From contig JBJBDC010000001.1 in assembly GCA_047285535.1 (NCBI GenBank), positions 1,280,136-1,344,135 of the forward strand: a stretch of 64,000 nucleotides of DNA, given 5' to 3'. The position numbers and the translations under genes were made by a program. This document shows positions 1 to 60,290 of this stretch, piece by piece. The stretch comes from Synechococcus sp. GTDB lineage: Bacteria > Cyanobacteriota > Cyanobacteriia > PCC-6307 > Cyanobiaceae. Position 1 is the stretch's first letter, and every line of letters begins with the position of its first letter. The notes beneath the pieces were generated by a model. It worked only from the letters and a program-made list of their open reading frames with translations, did no database searches and was not told the DNA's origin.

Positions 1-170
1 CGCAATCCTCCGCTGTCAGACTGCTCAACCCTGAATCGATAAGCGTTTCCAAGACCGAGCGCCTGCATGGGCTCATGGACAACAGATTCAGGCACTCCCA
101 AATCAAGGAATGCAGACAACAACATGTCCCCGGCCAGACCCGTTGGACAATCAATTACCAATGCACTCAT
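1..170 (-). CDS. larC: LarC/DUF111-family nickel insertion protein, N-terminal part (runs off window)
   Basis: Hand translation MSALVIDCPTGLAGDMLLSAFLDLGVP matches the LarC N-terminal DCxxGxAGDM motif; ATG overlaps the stop of the upstream gene; not in ORF track. Confidence 0.8.
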   Translation of the reverse strand, partial: MSALVIDCPTGLAGDMLLSAFLDLGVPESVVHEPMQALGLGNAYRFRVEQSDSGGL

Positions 171-805
171 GCCGCCTCTGGATGGAGGCCATCCAGCAAC
201 CTGTCGGCAATGGATTCAATCTGGGTGCGTCGAGAACGTAGAAGCTGTTCCACCTCTCGACGAGCCCTGCGCTGCTCTCGCTGCGCTGTTTCCGCGTCCT
301 GGCCAGAAACCCCCCACATTCGTCCCAACAGAGCCCTGTCATCTGCGCCCCCTTGAGGGGAGCCATCAAGCAGCATCTCTGCAGCCATCCCAGCCTGAAG
401 AACCCGGCTCCAGCGGCGCAAGTCTTCCAGAGACAACCGAGCACGATCGGGAAGTGCAAATTCCGTCACACCGTTACAGCGCAATCCCGCCTTAAGGCAT
501 CCACGAGTTCCAACGAGCACCCTCTTAACCACAAGGTCTTCTTCCTGCGCGACTAACCAATGACCAGCCTCGTGAAAGGCGATTCTGCGAAGTCTTTTTC
601 GCCCACCGGGAAGAGATTCGGCAAGAAGATGCCCTCCCATGCCATCGAGCTGAGAAGCATCCAAGGTGAGGCCGAGCAGAGCACCTCCTACGCCGAGGGC
701 TATCCATGCTGTCGAGAGTCCCATCAAAGGACCGAATACGGCCAAACCTGTTGCACTAGCCACCGCCACACCGGCGGTGGTGTTGAAGACGGGAGAAGAA
801 GGCAT
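167..805 (-). CDS. Conserved cyanobacterial M41-like zinc metalloprotease-domain membrane protein
   Basis: N-terminal TM segments, FHEAGH (HExxH), AGMAAE and GGADD motifs. Confidence 0.75.
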   Translation of the reverse strand: MPSSPVFNTTAGVAVASATGLAVFGPLMGLSTAWIALGVGGALLGLTLDASQLDGMGGHLLAESLPGGRKRLRRIAFHEAGHWLVAQEEDLVVKRVLVGTRGCLKAGLRCNGVTEFALPDRARLSLEDLRRWSRVLQAGMAAEMLLDGSPQGGADDRALLGRMWGVSGQDAETAQREQRRARREVEQLLRSRRTQIESIADRLLDGLHPEAA

Positions 806-1431
806 CAGGTCTTGGCAGCTCTTGGACGAGCACCTCTCTTACGAGCTCCGTCACGAGCTTTTCCTCCCCGCGTAGGCATCGGGGCGATCACTTCAACGGT
901 CTCAACGGCTAGGAGCTGTCCCTGGCGACGGACATCGAGGCTGACGAAATGGCGAAGATGCTCAATCGAAACCTCTCCTCTGAGCTGAACCTTGAACGGC
1001 AATGGGCGAAATCCATCGGCTCTGGGCAATTGCCGTACTTTCACAACGAGCTCATCGGCTTCTGGCTTCGTGAAGATCAATTCCCCGCGAATCGAGAAAA
1101 AATCATCCCCCTCAGGTAGTCGATCCTCTGAAGTATCAATGTTAGAAAGTGTGCTCGGCTCCCAGATCCCAGCAATTTGAAGGTGTAACTGGTCAGTCTC
1201 ACGGCAGCGTGGATACACCACCCAGAGATGGGGCTTTGTCATGTCGAGATGACGGCGCATCAGAGTGAGCATTCGGCCAAGAACGACAGCCTCAACTTCG
1301 GTGCCATCAGAATCAATTACGACTCCGCGGGTGAGCTGATCATCGGATTCAGGTCGATAAATGCCCCTCACTACACCGATAGCCCGGTACTGAAGGGGTT
1401 CTGTGACCGGGGAAATAGGATGGTCGCGCAT
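805..1431 (-). CDS. Conserved picocyanobacterial hypothetical protein
   Basis: Likely start MRDHPISPVTEPLQYRAIG at 1431; the longer ORF call overlaps the divergent gene. Confidence 0.75.
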   Translation of the reverse strand: MRDHPISPVTEPLQYRAIGVVRGIYRPESDDQLTRGVVIDSDGTEVEAVVLGRMLTLMRRHLDMTKPHLWVVYPRCRETDQLHLQIAGIWEPSTLSNIDTSEDRLPEGDDFFSIRGELIFTKPEADELVVKVRQLPRADGFRPLPFKVQLRGEVSIEHLRHFVSLDVRRQGQLLAVETVEVIAPMPTRGGKARDGARKRGARPRAAKT

Positions 1432-1543
1432 TTCCTGTGAGTGGCTTCCATTGGCCTCCAACGACTCTAGCCAGCTCAGGGAAATCGATTCAAAGTGGTC
1501 GCAGCACTCATAAATCAGATTGCCCGGCTTTAGCCGACCAACA

Positions 1544-2233
1544 ATGGTTCGAACTGGATTGTTGATGGGGTTAGGAGTATTCCTAGCCCTGATCACAGGC
1601 TGGTTGCTGGCCCAATCACTCCGCCCCAATCCACAGGCCAACGCCTTAAAACGGCCCCTCATCAAAAAAGAAACTTCAAGGGACCAGACCCGTCAACGAT
1701 TGGTGCAACTCATCCGCTCCCATCCAGGCGACTGGCGGTGGCGCTTTCTGTTGGCACGCATGAAGTTCCAGCAAGATGATCGTGAGGGGGCAATGCGTGA
1801 GCTCATGATCCTTCAAGCGTTGTGGCCCAATCGCCCTGAAATACAGGATCTAAAACTTTTGATGGTTGTGGGAACAGAGTCTCAGACCTCTGCCTTGAAT
1901 CAAATACTTGAGCACTTCAAGAAACAACCGAAGGGGGAAAGGCTCTCGCTTGGATTGCGCTTGGCTGATCTGCAAAGACTCACCGGCAACGACAAGGCAG
2001 CAATCGCGACCTATCGATTGCTAGCTGCAGAATCTCCCGAAAACATGCAACCTCTTCTGGCTTTGGCTTTGCTCCATCGAGAGAAAGGCCAGGTGCAGCA
2101 ATCTCAAAAGCTTTTAGTGAACTTGCGCAATCGCATATCCATCAGCAAAAAAGACAAGCAGGATCTCGATCAGATCGCCGTTCGTTGGGCCCTTGAGTCA
2201 GCCCGCGTTACTCATCGAGTTATTAATCAATAA
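1544..2233 (+). CDS. Membrane-anchored TPR-like protein
   Basis: N-terminal TM helix followed by helical TPR-like repeats. Confidence 0.6.
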   Translation: MVRTGLLMGLGVFLALITGWLLAQSLRPNPQANALKRPLIKKETSRDQTRQRLVQLIRSHPGDWRWRFLLARMKFQQDDREGAMRELMILQALWPNRPEIQDLKLLMVVGTESQTSALNQILEHFKKQPKGERLSLGLRLADLQRLTGNDKAAIATYRLLAAESPENMQPLLALALLHREKGQVQQSQKLLVNLRNRISISKKDKQDLDQIAVRWALESARVTHRVINQ

Positions 2234-2272
2234 CGGATCAAGATTCCAATCAATCTGAACTAGCCAAGCAAC

Positions 2273-2596
2273 TTAAGGAGCCGATTGGGGGGACGACTCC
2301 AAAGCCTTTAAAGCGGCATCAATGGCATCCGATGGAGGAGTGGCATCATTCATGGAATTTGCCCTCCTAAGCTGATTCAACAAATCCATAGGATTAGTGG
2401 CATCAAGCAGTGATTTCTTGTCCTGTTGGCCTGGCAGGGTCTGGAATACATCCCGCTCCGCGGGAGATTGATAATCGCTATTCAACGAGTTTTGCTGAGC
2501 CCAAGCATCAGTTCCAGGTACGAGCAAGAAAACGCTGAGGATGCCTAGAAGGAAGGGGCTCAAAGACGTAAGCGATTGCACAAGCTCATCTCCCAA
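2273..2596 (-). CDS. Conserved secreted hypothetical protein
   Basis: Signal-like N-terminus; LDATNPMDLLNQLRRANSMNDATPPSDAIDAAL motif; start uncertain. Confidence 0.65.
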   Translation of the reverse strand: MGDELVQSLTSLSPFLLGILSVFLLVPGTDAWAQQNSLNSDYQSPAERDVFQTLPGQQDKKSLLDATNPMDLLNQLRRANSMNDATPPSDAIDAALKALESSPQSAP

Positions 2597-3191
2597 GTCA
2601 ACGGGCTGATACTAATAGCCTTTACAAGACTCCGATCCTGCCGCGTCAATTGCAAGCTGGCATTCAATTTACCAACGAGACAACCAAGAACCCAGCTTTA
2701 GCAATAGATCTGAGAGAACATTAAAAGCTGTTGGACCTACTATCTGAAGCTACAAGTAGCTACAAAAGTGGCGGTCAAATAACTGGATCTATCACACCAC
2801 ACTGCTGCCTTCATGGCCATCAGCTGCTCCAAGTCATCCAGCAGTCCATCATCCGTATCAGCCACTGCCTTGCCTTGAGTAATAAGGTTACGCAGGTCTG
2901 CTTAGCAAACCGGAGGGGAAGGAGCTGGTGCTGAAGCGTTCTGTTCTGCCAGCACAGCCTTGCCCAGATCACCTAGAGCACTACTTAGAAGCTAATGCTG
3001 CCGTTTCGCACAAGCCTGTGCTTGATCAAGCACCTGGGGGTTAAGGCTGCTGCCAAAGGCTGCAGCATCAGTCCTGTTAGTGCTGAATGAGCTGGACACC
3101 GAGCGAATGCAATTAAGCGACTGGGCAACAGATAGTGACCCACATAAAAGGTCATAGCCCTCAAGGGATATAGATGAAAATGGGTCTCCAC

Positions 3192-3268
3192 AAAAAAAGA
3201 ACGGTTGCATTCTCAATGACCGTTCCTTAGGGGTGTGAGGTGAAGCGCATGCTCCCCAGCTCGCTTCA
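3192..3268 (-). ncRNA. Candidate Yfr1-like sRNA (hairpin - CCUCACACC - terminator)
   Basis: 5' stem 3241-3247/3262-3268, unpaired CCUCACACCCC, 3' stem 3199-3205/3219-3225 followed by U7. Confidence 0.55.
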
Positions 3269-4051
3269 GCATCAATATGAATGCAATTGAGTGGGTAACA
3301 GTGGATGAAGGTGAGTTCATCGCCTTTTGAACATCGCCTTACGCATCGGGAACAAACACACAGCTGGCAAAACTCTGCGCTGCAACGGACAACCCAATAG
3401 GGGCAAGAACTCTGCTTCTTGAAGACCAAGGCTTAGGGCCAGCCAGCCAGATGGTGTACGTCAATGTTTTCACGTAAAAGAGATGACCGGCTTGAAAAGC
3501 TAAGCAAAAAGCAGAGCAACGAAGTCAATAATGGCTTCATGACCTAAAGACGATGGAATCTGTGTGCACCCTCCATTTGAAACCAATGAACGTTCCTATC
3601 AGATTCCTGAATTCGTCATTAGGATTCTGAAATCTATTAACCACAAATTCCCTGAAGATTCTAAACAAAAGACAATCCTATTTCTGTTAAGCATCTTTTG
3701 ATGCTATGTCTAGGCTTGATGGCAATGTGGCTATCAACCGGTATTATTTTTGGCGCGTGAGCAAGGGGTAAGCTTTGCGTGAATCAAACCGGCAACCTTT
3801 TCGTCACCACTGACTCACTTTGACTGCATGAATTAGCTCACTTCCACGCAATTGAAAAATCCAATCGCAATCAAAAACCGCATGAGGCCATTAATCACAA
3901 CACTAGGCCCGTTTGGATCGCTGCTTTCTGTCTTGCATTTCCGCTGATTGGATTGGGTGACTTCTAGCCTTAATTATTGATGGAGATTTAAGTCTTATAT
4001 CGTTTTGCTTTTAGGAGCATGTCGCAATTTTAATTGAGACCAGATGCTGAC

Positions 4052-5317
4052 TCAATCGAGCAGCTCCATCACCCTGGCCACATCTGACCATGAAGGCCTT
4101 GTATACGCCTTTAACACCTTTGACATCCCAGACTGTGCATGTCTAGTTATTTCATAAAGGATACAAGGGGAGACACTATGAATCCCAAGCTGAGCAACAA
4201 CATGTGAACGCAAAGCACGACTCTTAATGCCATAGCGTTTCTTGCAGTTCACTGACCATCGGTGACTAAATAGCTTTAGAGAAGGATCATAAGATTTAGG
4301 AAAGACAAGCTCATGCGATGTATTCTTAATTACTTCAGGCAGCAGCTCTTCTAAAACTGCTTTTAGCTTTGAGCAAATAGGAACTTTTCGTACATCTTTT
4401 GCTCCACCTTTCAGCCTTCGTTCAATCGCTTCAGTTTGCCATTCAACAAAGCTTATCGACAATTTGGACATGTCTATGTCGCAATATCTCAAACCTTGGT
4501 GATCCGTAGCTCGACAACCTGTATAAAGTTGCAGGAAAAATCCTAGGTCTTTCAACATCAATGCTTTTTGCTTGGCTTGTTCAAGCACTAGGGGATCTAA
4601 AGATTCTTGTTTATCTGATGTCTTTAAGTTTTTCTTGAGGCCAGACCAAACATTAGTTCTAACTTCTCCTATATCAATAGCCCACGCCCAGAACGCAATT
4701 AGTGTTCCTAATTCAGTCTTGACACTAGAAGGCTTCTTTTGTTCAAGAAGATAGGCTTTGTATACAGCTGCTTGTTTTCGATCAATACCATCCAAATAGT
4801 CACTGCCGTACCACTCAGCCAACCGCTTTAAGCGTCCACGCCAAGACTGCTCTGTCGTAGCGGCTGGCTGTTCTGCTTTGAGTCGCCGGTCAATCCACAT
4901 CAGGTAGCTAGTAGAGCCCCTATGAGCAGCTTCCAGGGGCTTGCGCAGCTTCTGTCGCGCGGCAAAGGGCAATCCCTGCTTCTCAAGCTCCTCACAGCTG
5001 GAAAGAACGGAATTGATTTGATCTTCAGTGAGGCCGATGCTCTTCAGGCGTTGATCAAGACGACCAAGAAAGTTCTCGTCAACATGAGGTCCTCCGTCTT
5101 GCTCACCCGCTTGACCAATGGGATCTAAGCCACGCTTGTCTTGAAAGTGCTTGTCAATCTCGCGCAGAATTCGAGTTCTGTTGTTGAGAGCTTCAGCGTG
5201 GGTCTTACCAGCTTTCCTAACGACACTACTGGTACCCATCACCTTTCTGAGTGGGTTAGGCACAGCAACACGGATGTAGAAGCCGCTTCGGCCTGGGATA
5301 GTTGTAATGGCTCCCAT
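4052..5317 (-). CDS. Tyrosine recombinase/integrase with arm-binding N-terminus
   Basis: FYIRVAVP N-terminus, LYTGCR (catalytic R), RKVPI, RALR (HxxR position), TRH and C-terminal AY. Confidence 0.85.
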   Translation of the reverse strand: MGAITTIPGRSGFYIRVAVPNPLRKVMGTSSVVRKAGKTHAEALNNRTRILREIDKHFQDKRGLDPIGQAGEQDGGPHVDENFLGRLDQRLKSIGLTEDQINSVLSSCEELEKQGLPFAARQKLRKPLEAAHRGSTSYLMWIDRRLKAEQPAATTEQSWRGRLKRLAEWYGSDYLDGIDRKQAAVYKAYLLEQKKPSSVKTELGTLIAFWAWAIDIGEVRTNVWSGLKKNLKTSDKQESLDPLVLEQAKQKALMLKDLGFFLQLYTGCRATDHQGLRYCDIDMSKLSISFVEWQTEAIERRLKGGAKDVRKVPICSKLKAVLEELLPEVIKNTSHELVFPKSYDPSLKLFSHRWSVNCKKRYGIKSRALRSHVVAQLGIHSVSPCILYEITRHAQSGMSKVLKAYTRPSWSDVARVMELLD

Positions 5318-5401
5318 AACCAACCAGTGTATCTACAAACTGTACCTACACTGACTCCGCAGATCCCAGTTCAGCACTAGTCACAATCGTTTTCGTTCGC
5401 C

Positions 5402-6226
5402 ATGAAGATAGCCAGCTGGAATGTCAATTCAGTGCGCACTCGCCTGGATCATGTTCTGAATTGGCTTGAGCAAACGGGATCAGACCTGCTGGCATTACAA
5501 GAGACAAAAGTGGATGATCCCCAGTTTCCAATAGAGCCATTTCTCCAAAGGGGATATCAAGTTCAGATTTACGGACAAAAGGCCTACAACGGCGTTGCCC
5601 TGATCAGTCGCACACCCCTTGAAGATGTTCGTAGGGGTTTCGTGGGGGAACTGGCCGACGACAAGGAGGCGCAGTCGCTTGATTCTCAAAAGCGTGTCAT
5701 CAGCGCACTGATCGATGGCATCCGCATCGTGAATTTATACGTCCCCAATGGTTCAAGTCTGAGCTCTGATAAGTACGGCTACAAGCTCAATTGGCTGTCC
5801 TGCCTTGGGCGCTACCTCAGAGCCGTGACAACACGAGAGGAACCACTCTGCGTGATGGGAGATTTCAATATCGGTCTTGAAGCTCGAGACCTCCCTGATC
5901 CAGAACGTTTATCCGGTGGAATCATGGCCTCAGATCGTGAAAGGGATGCTTTAACGACAGCGCTTGGTCCCGATCTTCAGGATGCATTCCGACTCTTTGA
6001 ACCCAACAGTGGCCATTGGAGCTGGTGGGATTACCGCAGTGGGGCTTGGGATAGGGACCGCGGCTGGCGTATCGATCACATTTACCTCAATGAAACGCTT
6101 CGAGAGTTAGCTCGAAGCTGCTTCATCGATAAACAAGAACGAGGACGAATCCAACCCAGCGATCATGCACCTGTTCAGGTGGACCTTGCCTGGGAGTTTG
6201 AGGAGGATGAAGAGAACGAGGACTGA
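5402..6226 (+). CDS. xth: Exodeoxyribonuclease III
   Basis: IASWNVNS, LQETK, GDFN, RIDHI, SDHAPV motifs. Confidence 0.97.
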   Translation: MKIASWNVNSVRTRLDHVLNWLEQTGSDLLALQETKVDDPQFPIEPFLQRGYQVQIYGQKAYNGVALISRTPLEDVRRGFVGELADDKEAQSLDSQKRVISALIDGIRIVNLYVPNGSSLSSDKYGYKLNWLSCLGRYLRAVTTREEPLCVMGDFNIGLEARDLPDPERLSGGIMASDRERDALTTALGPDLQDAFRLFEPNSGHWSWWDYRSGAWDRDRGWRIDHIYLNETLRELARSCFIDKQERGRIQPSDHAPVQVDLAWEFEEDEENED

Positions 6227-6265
6227 TGAATGGCGTGAACGCTTTCCATTGAGAATGCGATTCGG

Positions 6266-7738
6266 TCAATACACCACAGCCTCCCCAGGAAGGGGCTTTC
6301 CTGCTTCCTGCAACTGAACGGAACGTCTCAACGATTCACCACAACTCTGAGGGGTTGGAAAAATCTTGCCTGGATTGGCTCTTCCTAGCGGATCAAACGC
6401 AAGTCGAACCCACTGCATGGTCCGCAGGTCTTCAGGGCCGAACATTTGATCGAGGTAGCAGCGCTTATCACTACCTACACCATGTTCCCCGCTGATGCTG
6501 CCGCCGACCTCGAGGCATAGATGCATGATCGCCCCACCGAGGGCCTTCACGCGTTCATTGACTCCCGGCTCAGAAGCTCGGTACAAAATCAGCGGATGAA
6601 GGTTTCCATCACCAGCGTGAAAAACATTCGCGACAACAAGTCCATGATCTGAGCTGAGCTGCTCGATGGCCTTGAGAACACGCGGTAGAGCAGTGCGTGG
6701 CACGACACCGTCTTGCAAGTAATAGCTGGGGCACTGCCTGCCAAGGGCTGAAATAGCGCTTTTACGGCCTTTCCAGAGACGGGCTCGATCCTCTTCACTC
6801 CAGGCTTCGCGAATGTCGCCCGACCCAGCGTCTCGGCAAAGTCCCTTGGCAACTATCACAGCTTCCTTAACCTCAGGTTGCTGACCATCAAGCTCAATAA
6901 GCAGCACAGCACCAGCGTCCGGCGGATACTCCTCTTCTCCAAAGGCCTCGTTCACAGCTTGAATGCAGGTTTGATCCATGATTTCCAGACCTGCTGGCAA
7001 CACACCAGCTCGGGTGATCAGCCGAACAGCCTCTCCAGCGGCCTGCATAGAAGGAAAATCTGCTAACAGCACGCCAACAGCGTCAGGGGCATGGAGCAAA
7101 CGCAATGTGATCGCCGTAGCAATTCCAAGCGTGCCCTCACTCCCGATAAAAACCCCTCGCAGATCAAGTTCAGCCGAATCACACAAGGAAGTACCCAGGC
7201 GAGTGGGTGTGCCATCCGGCAACACAACATCTAGAGCAAGAACATGATTGCTCGTGACGCCGTACTTCAAACAGTGAACACCGCCAGAGTTTTCCGCGAC
7301 ATTGCCACCGATGCTGCAGACCACCTGACTGGAGGGATCTGGAGCGTAATAAAAGCCATCACCAACGACAGCACGGCTGACCCAACTATTAATGACTCCT
7401 GGTTCCACTGTGATTGTCTGATTGTCCAGATCAATGTCGAGAATGCGCCGCATACGACTGGTCACGACAAGAAGTGCTTCTTGCTCCACCAACGCACCAC
7501 CTGACAGTCCAGTGCCGCTGCCGCGAGCGACGAAAGGAATGCCATGTCGATGGCAACACTTCAAAATGTTAACCACCTGATCAGGCGATTCCGGGAGCAC
7601 CGCGAGCTTCGGCATGTGCCTGTCCATCGTCAGACCGTCACAGTCGTAGGACAACAACTCCTGCCGCTTTGCAACAAGGGATTTGGAGGGCATGAACCCC
7701 CTCAATTCCCGCTCTAACGCTGACCAGTCGTATCGCAC
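6266..7738 (-). CDS. glcD: Glycolate dehydrogenase FAD-linked subunit
   Basis: RGSGTGLSGG, APDPSS, HAGDGNLHP, SISGEHGVG, NPGKIF; start uncertain (GTG 7738). Confidence 0.9.
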   Translation of the reverse strand: MRYDWSALERELRGFMPSKSLVAKRQELLSYDCDGLTMDRHMPKLAVLPESPDQVVNILKCCHRHGIPFVARGSGTGLSGGALVEQEALLVVTSRMRRILDIDLDNQTITVEPGVINSWVSRAVVGDGFYYAPDPSSQVVCSIGGNVAENSGGVHCLKYGVTSNHVLALDVVLPDGTPTRLGTSLCDSAELDLRGVFIGSEGTLGIATAITLRLLHAPDAVGVLLADFPSMQAAGEAVRLITRAGVLPAGLEIMDQTCIQAVNEAFGEEEYPPDAGAVLLIELDGQQPEVKEAVIVAKGLCRDAGSGDIREAWSEEDRARLWKGRKSAISALGRQCPSYYLQDGVVPRTALPRVLKAIEQLSSDHGLVVANVFHAGDGNLHPLILYRASEPGVNERVKALGGAIMHLCLEVGGSISGEHGVGSDKRCYLDQMFGPEDLRTMQWVRLAFDPLGRANPGKIFPTPQSCGESLRRSVQLQEAGKPLPGEAVVY

Positions 7739-7859
7739 TGATGGCAATCGGGACTGAATCAACCTAAGCAATTTTGTCCTCAATTCTCAGCCTTCACCTA
7801 CAGAAAAAACACATTGGGGCGATCTTGGGTCAAGATGTTGAACGGTTTGCAACTGCCCT

Positions 7860-9176
7860 TTGGCTCCCGTCCCCGTGACTGCTTCCAATCTGAACACCAG
7901 CCGCTCCCAGGCCATTTTCAGTGCTGCCAAGGCTCTGATGCCCGGTGGCGTCAGCTCACCGGTGCGTGCTTTCAAATCGGTTGGCGGACAACCAATCGTG
8001 TTTGATCGGGTCAAAGGCCCCTACGCATGGGATGTCGATGGCAATAAATATGTGGACTACATCGGCAGCTGGGGCCCAGCCATTTGCGGACACGCTCATC
8101 CAGAGGTCACGAGCGCCCTCCAAGAAGCCATTGAGAAGGGCACCAGTTTTGGCGCACCCTGCGCCTTAGAGAACACTCTTGCGGAAATGGTGATTGAGGC
8201 CGTCCCCAGCGTGGAGATGGTTCGCTTCGTCAATAGCGGCACAGAGGCTTGCATGTCGATGCTTCGCTTGATTAGAGCCTTCACAGGGCGAGACAAGATC
8301 ATCAAATTCGAGGGCTGTTATCACGGCCACGCCGACATGTTCCTCGTCAAAGCAGGCTCAGGAGTCGCGACACTTGGATTGCCTGATTCACCAGGTGTAC
8401 CGCGAAGTACTACCGCCAACACCTTGACGGCTCCTTACAACGACTTGGAATCGGTTAAGCAGCTCTTTGCTGAGAATCCCGATGCAATTGCAGGTGTAAT
8501 TCTGGAGCCGATTGTCGGTAACGCTGGATTTATCCAGCCCGAACCAGGCTTCCTTGAGGGTTTGCGTGAACTCACCAAGGAAAACGGCGCGCTTTTGGTA
8601 TTCGATGAAGTGATGACAGGATTCCGCATCAGCTACGGCGGAGCCCAAGGCCACTTTGGAGTCACTCCCGATCTAACCACAATGGGCAAAGTGATTGGAG
8701 GAGGTTTGCCAGTTGGCGCCTACGGCGGTCGCAAAGACATCATGGAAATGGTGGCTCCAGCAGGCCCGATGTATCAAGCAGGAACATTGAGTGGCAATCC
8801 TCTTGCCATGACGGCTGGAATCAAAACGCTGGAATTACTGCAACAACCAGGAACTTACGAAAAACTCACAGCAACCACCGATCGATTAATCCAGGGAATC
8901 CTGGATGCAGGTCGCGAAGCAGGACTTCCCATTACGGGGGGGAGCGTTGGAGCCATGTTCGGCTTTTTCCTGTGCGAAGGCCCAGTTCGCAATTTCGAAG
9001 AAGCAAAAGCGACAGATTCAGAGCGTTTCGGACAACTGCACCGAGCCATGCTTGAGCGCGGTGTATACCTTGCACCATCTGCCTTTGAAGCTGGCTTCAC
9101 CTCGCTTGCCCATTCCGATGAAGACATCGACACCACGATTAAGGCATTTCGCGAGAGTTTCGATGCAATCGCATAA
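7860..9176 (+). CDS. hemL: Glutamate-1-semialdehyde 2,1-aminomutase
   Basis: [41 protein letters not shown]. Confidence 0.98.
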
Positions 9177-60072: not shown

Positions 60073-60154
60073 TAGCTCAAAAGCAGGCTTATTAGGCTTT
60101 TCCGGGTTCCAGGGTGATTCCCTAGATCCATTGCCCTGTCTTGTTTTTTAGAGA

Positions 60155-60228
60155 CGCCCCCTGTTGGATTCGAACCAACGACCGGCTGCTTAGAAGGCAG
60201 CTGCTCTATCCAGCTGAGCTAAGGGAGC
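60155..60228 (-). tRNA. tRNA-Arg(TCT)
   Basis: GCTCCCTTAGCTCAGCTGGATAGAGCAGCTGCCTTCTAAGCAGCCGGTCGTTGGTTCGAATCCAACAGGGGGCG cloverleaf. Confidence 0.98.
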
Positions 60229-60290
60229 ATCTCTGCATTTTGTCAGTTCATGGACAGCACCCTCTTAAACTTGAAAACTGTGTGGTGATA

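Follow-up and report, generated by a model that had tools for sequence, protein, structure and literature searches.

In this study, we analyzed 64,000 nucleotides of the genome of a Synechococcus sp. (assembly GCA_047285535.1, contig JBJBDC010000001.1, positions 1,280,136 to 1,344,135 of the forward strand), hereafter called the window, in which an insert of 2,759 bp separates xth, the gene for exodeoxyribonuclease III, from the gene of a 107-amino-acid (aa) protein. The insert is measured from AGCTGG at 2655 to AGCTGG at 5414. Comparison with other genomes revealed the insertion and its borders, the rebuilt start of xth, an attP form of the element, and presence/absence polymorphism. We are confident that a small integrative element entered the 5′ codons of xth by site-specific recombination through its tyrosine integrase and thereby rebuilt the start of the gene. 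The mechanism, by which a mobile element restores the 5′ end of its target gene, is known; the target gene, xth, is new.

Empty sites and borders of the insert

For the detection of empty sites, positions 1500–7000 of the window were searched against 41 related genomes. In four of these (G009, G001, G012, and G006), the left flank aligns up to window position 2669 and the right flank from 5400, and the two flank alignments overlap by 30 nt in each genome. At 10/10 loci of relatives, the 107-aa gene and xth are immediate neighbors in divergent orientation, about 45 nt apart, as a preliminary description of this DNA, made without database searches, had predicted for strains lacking the insert. 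The start codon of xth is GTG in 10/10 empty sites and ATG in 4/4 occupied sites. The empty-site start reads GTG CAA ATC GCC AGC TGG, and after GTG all ten follow the pattern (C/A)(A/G)(A/G) ATC/ATT GCC/GCG AGC TGG AA.

The 90 nt on either side of AGCTGG were compared between five empty-site genomes and the two junctions of the window, with random 90-nt pairs as baseline (48.3 ± 3.6 identical positions, maximum 58). Upstream of AGCTGG, the empty sites agree with the left junction at 60–64/90 positions and with the right junction at 52–53/90; downstream, they agree with the right junction at 75–77/90 and with the left at 49–54/90. The preliminary description had named in advance a resemblance of the DNA upstream of empty xth genes to the right junction as the result that would speak against insertion. 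Since this DNA is closer to the left junction, the comparison favors the insertion model. Accordingly placed is the native intergenic DNA at 2597–2642, which aligns with empty-site upstream DNA, once lay upstream of xth and is now separated from it, while the DNA now in front of xth (5318–5401) is unrelated to empty-site upstream DNA in the same test.

In the empty sites (L003–L012; window equivalent 2596–2648), the gap of only about 45 nt implies that the promoters of the 107-aa gene and of xth must overlap each other's 5′ ends. The insertion therefore also alters the DNA more than about 60 nt upstream of the 107-aa gene.

Attachment sites

The left attachment site, attL (2643–2660, plus strand), is what remains of the first six xth codons (GCG TCA ATT GCA AGC TGG), as an alignment with 10 attB sites shows; with the bases that follow it reads GCG TCA ATT GCA AGC TGG CAT TCA ATT TAC. 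GCG stands where the empty sites have GTG, so that the codons for I-A-S-W are kept and the start codon is lost. Hence the proposal that the original 5′ end of xth was left behind at the left border holds for the relic codons and fails for the start codon. At the right border, attR (5402–5419, plus strand) consists of the element-borne start ATG AAG ATA GCC and AGCTGG (5414–5419), and with the bases that follow it reads ATG AAG ATA GCC AGC TGG AAT GTC. In 4/4 occupied sites, xth begins in frame with ATG AAG/AAA/CAA at attR. The change made to the protein by the window element is Q2K only, and the metagenomic locus L023 keeps Q. With ATG in all occupied and GTG in all empty sites, the earlier suggestion that the element supplies a new MKIA start together with new upstream DNA was borne out.

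The attP and attB sites share AAATCGCCAGCTGGAAT, a 17-nt core that encodes (K/Q)-I-A-S-W-N. In empty sites, this core corresponds to codons 2–7 of xth, which places attB (the attB-type site in xth is GTGCAAATCGCCAGCTGGAAT) within the first codons of a protein-coding gene and agrees with the previous statement that the target is not a tRNA gene. A tRNA search of three loci, L013, L022, and L024, found none. Inside the borders lie the P′ arm (2661–2770, plus strand), which is homologous to the inner left end of two related elements (G018 and L024) and to the attP contig L022, and the P arm (5318–5401, plus strand), which comprises the 84 nt between the divergent starts of the integrase gene (int) and xth and is conserved in 5/5 elements.

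The preliminary description had started from the similarity of the two ends, and the strings it quoted, ATTGCAAGCTGGCATTCAATT (2649–2669) and ATAGCCAGCTGGAATGTCAATT (5408–5429), are found there. They agree in 17/22 columns with one indel. This pair is absent among the 20 direct-repeat families listed of 43 in the region 2200–5600, where many unrelated 14–20-nt pairs reach 75–93% identity; the similarity of these 21- and 22-nt ends alone is not beyond chance. It gains its meaning from the comparison with other genomes. Of the proposed end repeat, AGCTGG is indeed shared, whereas the TCAATT tail of the left copy aligns with the P′ arms of other elements, internal to those elements, and is therefore probably element sequence and not duplicated xth sequence. 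As the end repeat by itself stays within chance expectation, the insert might have arrived by another route, such as homologous replacement of a variable intergenic island, with a coincidental similarity of the ends. We regard this as extremely improbable, because independent elements share the same borders at AGCTGG to the nucleotide, a contig in attP form exists, the geometry of the arm repeats is conserved, and the element carries a mimic of the start codon of its target.

Arm-type repeats

Arm-like strings had been noted inside both ends, GGACCTACT, GAAGCTACA, and GTAGCTACA at 2733–2764 and GTATCTACA and GTACCTACA at 5329–5350, and these positions are correct. In the P′ arm, the repeats (2733–2741, 2746–2754, and 2756–2764) start 78, 91, and 101 nt after the first base of AGCTGG; in the P arm, they (5329–5337 and 5342–5350) start 85 and 72 nt before it. 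The pattern GWANCTACA occurs 8 times in the 64 kb versus 1.99 expected, none of 100 shuffles reached 8, and 4/8 occurrences fall within the two patches 2733–2764 and 5329–5350. The spacing of 85 and 72 nt before AGCTGG recurs in 5/5 elements and that of 78 and 91 nt after it in 4/4 elements having the P′ arm; the repeat at 101 nt is an extra, fifth one of the window element. The arm-like repeats are thus beyond chance, and their sequence and placement suggest that the GTAYCTACA-like repeats are probably arm sites of the integrase. A LexA box of the cyanobacterial type was also considered by eye and dropped, since the arm repeats are direct and not palindromic.

Related elements, attP form, and polymorphism

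Close relatives of the window integrase were found in 2/46 genomes of the genus, namely the window genome and G018, and in the same two of 401 genomes of the family; in a large protein database, this integrase is represented by 10 clusters. The G018 genome carries a 3.8-kb element at the same xth site, with an integrase 78% identical to that of the window and different cargo open reading frames (ORFs). A metagenome scan added three loci: L024 is nearly identical to the G018 element locus, the integrase is divergent from xth in both L023 and L024, and the third is L022. Thus, as the preliminary description had asked of homologous integrases, four of the five closely related ones (77–100% identity) abut xth, and the fifth, that of L022, is in attP form. 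No integrase relatives were found in the genome contigs collection with the alignment and P0004 as queries, in viral contigs, or in phage records by tblastn, and the P-arm repeat pattern had no match in the viral contigs.

On L022, the P arm is followed by ATGAAAATCGCCAGCTGGAAT and then directly by the P′ arm, in one contiguous attP configuration. The sequence beyond the core is a homolog of the G018 element's inner left end, at 86% over 150 nt. When it was examined for xth, the 107-aa gene, the TPR gene, and glcD, none was present, and its attP carries the same mimic of the xth start as attR.

Occupied and empty sites occur next to nearly identical xth genes. The xth gene of L023 (occupied) is 99.5% identical at the nucleotide level to that of G001 (empty), and the xth gene of G018 (occupied) is 94.6–94.8% identical to those of G012 and G006 (empty) and 81% identical to that of the window. 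Judged from these sequences, the element is polymorphic in presence and absence among close relatives, and the family has been mobile recently. The same figures bear on the possibility that the arrangement of integrase and xth is ancestral and that a deletion removed the segment from the empty genomes. The synonymous divergence (dS) of the integrases of the window and G018 is about 1.45, of the same order as that of xth (about 1.1), so that an old insertion followed by vertical inheritance is conceivable for these two. We nevertheless hold an ancestral arrangement to be very unlikely: close integrases are confined to 2/46 genus genomes and 2 of 401 family genomes, the xth gene of G018 is nearer to empty genomes than to the window, L023 and G001 differ in occupancy at almost identical xth genes, and attL retains a relic of the first xth codons. 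Moreover, a loss by precise excision would itself be the site-specific mechanism.

A small ORF is common to L022 (1–130, plus strand) and the G018 element (L013, about 2207–2392, minus strand), with 79% identity over 136 nt. Its place is on the P′ side, opposite int with respect to attP and in the same direction, and the G018 copy is interrupted by an in-frame TAG. This ORF is a candidate for an excision or regulatory factor; no counterpart was found in the window element.

The integrase

The integrase gene occupies 4052–5317 on the minus strand, starts with ATG at 5317, and encodes 421 aa; the assignment combines the ORF, the predicted fold, and the family PHROG_1, which the L022 integrase (80% identical to that of the window) matches at 1.3e-25. 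The L022 integrase also reaches 34 bits with PF00589. In the AlphaFold model (mean predicted local distance difference test score 72.6), three strands and a helix form the N-terminus, followed by a helical domain in the middle and the catalytic domain. A Foldseek search with the model gave 32 matches with E ≤ 0.001, led by the Tn1549 integrase (6e-8) and the lambda integrase (6e-7), followed by Brujita integrase, XerA, and Cre. On the strength of this model, the protein has a tyrosine-recombinase fold, while its sequence similarity to lambda integrase is marginal (E = 0.006).

In an alignment with the lambda integrase chain, the Arg of TGCR falls on that of TGQR. All 10 sequences of a family alignment have this Arg, the second Arg of HxxR, and the His of TRH, and 9/10, the window copy among them, have the Tyr of GYxRP (Trp in P0002). 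These Arg, His, and Tyr residues are presumably those of the catalytic set of the family. Pairwise ratios of nonsynonymous to synonymous substitution (omega) are 0.09–0.19 for all informative integrase pairs, which indicates at the level of sequence evolution that the integrase is under purifying selection.

Proposed course of integration

The recombining sites would be attP of the element and attB in codons 2–7 of xth. Since attP holds a mimic of the xth start, with ATG and the same codons preceded by element DNA, integration would fuse the rest of xth to the start codon and upstream region of the element at attR. The original GTG start and the native upstream DNA would be stranded at attL, leaving int and xth divergent with 84 nt between them and all upstream DNA of xth derived from the element. 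Lambda integrase binds two kinds of site. The window integrase probably does likewise, with the core as one kind and the arm repeats, contacted via the N-terminal sheet-plus-helix domain, as the other. The P arm would contain the new promoter of xth. We further infer that the window copy can still move and that its excision would need a factor so far unrecognized.

Cargo and state of the window copy

The cargo region (2771–4051) has a guanine plus cytosine (GC) content of 46%, and about 1.38 kb lie between the P′ arm and int. No recognizable gene was found in it, and a 145-aa ORF is without Pfam match. Compared by blastn and tblastx, the cargo showed no similarity to that of the other elements; it has no second copy in the host genome and no match in phages, and an Rfam scan of window positions 1–9000 returned only a chance-level microRNA match. 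A search of the tested cargo ORFs, including those of L022 and G018, against Pfam and PHROG gave no match, and no replication, transfer, or excision gene.

In three runs from two studies, parts of the element recur on short environmental contigs at least 95% identical to the window (in most cases at least 99%); attL is crossed by one contig in run X7 and attR by one in X4. At 2871–3001 and at 3086, such contigs show clustered substitutions and insertions of 6 nt (GCTGGT), 3 nt (ATG), and 1 nt. In one frame of the minus strand, an Ala-Pro-like stretch becomes longer through the 6-nt insertion. These cargo differences hint weakly at a small coding region.

Several observations weigh against a site-specific, still mobile element. 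AGCTGG at 2655–2660 is the only stretch of attL that is identical to attR. L022 could be a junction of tandem copies instead of a free circle or, less likely, an assembly chimera across the 17-nt core. The window integrase scores 24.0 bits with PF00589, below the curated cut-off of 27.1, and has Arg in place of the His of HxxR (SRALR), where the other 9/9 sequences have SHxLR. No gene for an excisionase (recombination directionality factor) was recognized in any element, a simple consensus promoter scan of the P arm found no promoter, and among the contigs of four environmental runs none joins across the element as an excision joint would. As contigs drop rare forms, the lack of such a joint says nothing about excision.

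Some of these points would also fit an immobilized remnant, kept because its imprecise removal would destroy the start of xth: the identity of attL and attR over only 6 nt, the stranded start codon changed to GCG, the Arg for His in the window copy alone, the cargo without a family-matched ORF or similarity to other elements, and the contigs of three runs that cover parts of the element including each junction (one run each) with none joining across. Yet the integrase ORF is of full length, with an omega of 0.09–0.10 against the other four copies, and four arm repeats stand at the exact spacing of the family, with the fifth in addition. Runs X7 and X8 cover the Arg codon with no listed difference there, and the difference that they show five codons away (position 4202) is synonymous. 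The mismatch of attL and attR may in part reflect host-derived versus element-derived sequence beside the crossover. Arg at the position of the HxxR His is a tolerated natural variant in some tyrosine recombinases. All in all, we give the remnant a little less than an even chance. It concerns the present state of the window copy; entry by site-specific recombination into xth remains our preferred explanation of how the insert arose.

The wider integrase family

Integrases 30–47% identical to that of the window also have direct repeats of their own just upstream of int. In 10/13 such loci examined (L027–L039), a conserved motif of about 45 nt lies next to the integrase, and this motif is the 3′ end of ssrS, the 6S RNA gene (Rfam RF00013, 83.4 and 98.1 bits). 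An Rfam search of the integrase loci themselves gave no match, and the tmRNA gene was rejected as the target of these integrases, because it does not contain the conserved motif. Sites of 6S RNA or the motif are at 671519–671547 on contig C1 of G000 (outside the window), at 608–795 of L052, and at 817–1000 and near the far end of L053. Of 46 genus genomes searched, 23 hold the motif, 21 of them in single copy and two (G011 and G057) in two copies. The second copy of G011 stands beside an integrase, 15.6 kb from the full 6S gene, which implies an island integrated in ssrS. The tycheposon preprint, in the parts accessible to us, lists only tRNA and tmRNA targets (bioRxiv 10.1101/2020.12.28.424599).

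In a maximum-likelihood tree of 23 rows, rooted only at the midpoint, the xth integrases form a clade with 100/100 support that has another integrase clade as its sister and is nested among ssrS-adjacent integrases. The branching suggests that this integrase clade switched its target from ssrS to xth.

Two integrases, of G015 (L029, 2938–3771) and of contig C2 of G011 (L038), lie not at ssrS but downstream of a SurE gene (Pfam, 203 bits), at a distance of about 190 nt. They are very close to the ssrS-adjacent integrase of G011, with which they share the arm region before the sequences diverge; the SurE-adjacent position could be either an additional target or a secondary site. Across L027–L039, each integrase subclade has 2–4 direct repeats of 8–13 nt at about 30–100 nt upstream of the int start, for example GGTCCTACCA, CTGCAGAACCAAA, CTGACTGACA, and GGTACCCACA, and from these sequences it looks as if the arm sites co-vary with the integrase.

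Neighboring genes and host genome

The xth gene (5402–6226, plus strand; 274 aa) matches TIGR00195 with 273 bits (cut-off 182.55), and the alignment begins at residue 1. It is intact, occurs once in the host genome, and has pairwise omega values of 0.07–0.10. To the left of the element, the 107-aa gene (2273–2596, minus strand) is the usual divergent neighbor of xth and had no family match in Pfam and NCBIfam; it is preceded by a gene for a TPR protein (1520–2233, plus strand), identified from the ORF list and a family search. To the right of xth follows a 505-aa ORF (6266–7783, minus strand), which is a putative glcD. The host genome is a single contig of 3.03 Mb with a GC content of 50.6%; its tmRNA is two-piece, and the tag is also found in marine Synechococcus and Cyanobium. 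The sole tRNA gene of the window is tRNA-Arg(TCT) at 60153–60229 on the minus strand, a type that Hackl et al. list as an island-seeding site in Prochlorococcus (bioRxiv 10.1101/2020.12.28.424599).

Significance

As far as the sources available to us go, described picocyanobacterial elements sit at tRNA or tmRNA genes; for the element described here, attB, attL, attR, and attP are all in hand. Conservation of the N-terminal motif of exonuclease III keeps the attB site constant, and the 17-nt core is present with at most one mismatch in 28/401 family genomes, where not every match need lie in xth. The sole xth copy has received from the element both a different start codon (ATG for GTG) and its whole upstream region, which offers a testable link between a mobile element and the expression of a DNA-repair gene. 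The arm repeats lie 52–73 nt upstream of the new xth start. In addition, the small module of int and attP could serve as a site-specific integration tool for cyanobacteria that are hard to engineer. A wider proposal is tentative and, in our judgment, rather unlikely in its entirety: the elements might constitute an undescribed class of minimal, integrase-only, currently mobile, non-tRNA elements of marine picocyanobacteria, whose integrase clade would have given up the 3′ end of ssrS as target for the 5′ codons of xth by acquiring the start mimic in attP. Integrase bound at the arm repeats could then tie the expression of xth, a base-excision-repair nuclease gene, to the state of the element.

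Comparison with known systems

We found no paper linking xth with an attachment site, subscription-only literature being outside the search, and the accessible text of Hackl et al. (bioRxiv 10.1101/2020.12.28.424599) mentions neither 'xth' nor 'exodeoxyribonuclease'. Like the lambda-type integrases, the window integrase has a matching fold, a small N-terminal sheet-plus-helix domain, and direct arm repeats distinct from the core. Its sequence similarity to lambda integrase, however, is marginal, and that its N-terminal domain binds the repeats is an extrapolation here.

The same 5′-end mechanism is described for the dusA elements and for SXT at prfC (bioRxiv 10.1101/2021.06.18.448947, which cites Farrugia et al. 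for the dusA elements), and IMEVchUSA3 at dusA was shown to provide a new promoter (bioRxiv 10.1101/2021.06.18.448947). With the dusA elements, as portrayed there, the xth elements share the tyrosine integrase, the 5′ end of a conserved housekeeping gene as target, a reading frame restored with new N-terminal coding sequence, and the position of the integrase at the element end adjoining the target gene. They differ in the target, xth, and in the host, a marine picocyanobacterium and not a proteobacterium. They also differ in size, with 2.8, 3.8, and more than 4.3 kb compared with 22.8–37.1 kb, and in the extent of the N-terminal change, with Q2K alone compared with an altered N-terminus of 35 residues in the dusA case. 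No RdfN-like gene was recognized in the xth elements. SXT/R391 at the 5′ end of prfC is conjugative and about 100 kb long with xis and transfer genes, none of which was recognized here.

Ecologically, the tycheposons and the integrase-only 'cryptic' elements of Prochlorococcus come closest to the xth elements. The tycheposons carry hallmark genes (primase, helicase, and others), whereas the cargo ORFs tested here gave no match to these and no replication module was found. About half of the Prochlorococcus elements are 'cryptic' and have integrase and excisionase as their only hallmark genes (bioRxiv 10.1101/2020.12.28.424599). As described there, the tycheposons and 'cryptic' elements resemble the xth elements in being small and marine picocyanobacterial, with an inward-facing tyrosine recombinase at one end and variable cargo. 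The tycheposons are located at six tRNA genes and the tmRNA gene, whereas the elements described here occupy the 5′ end of the protein-coding gene xth.

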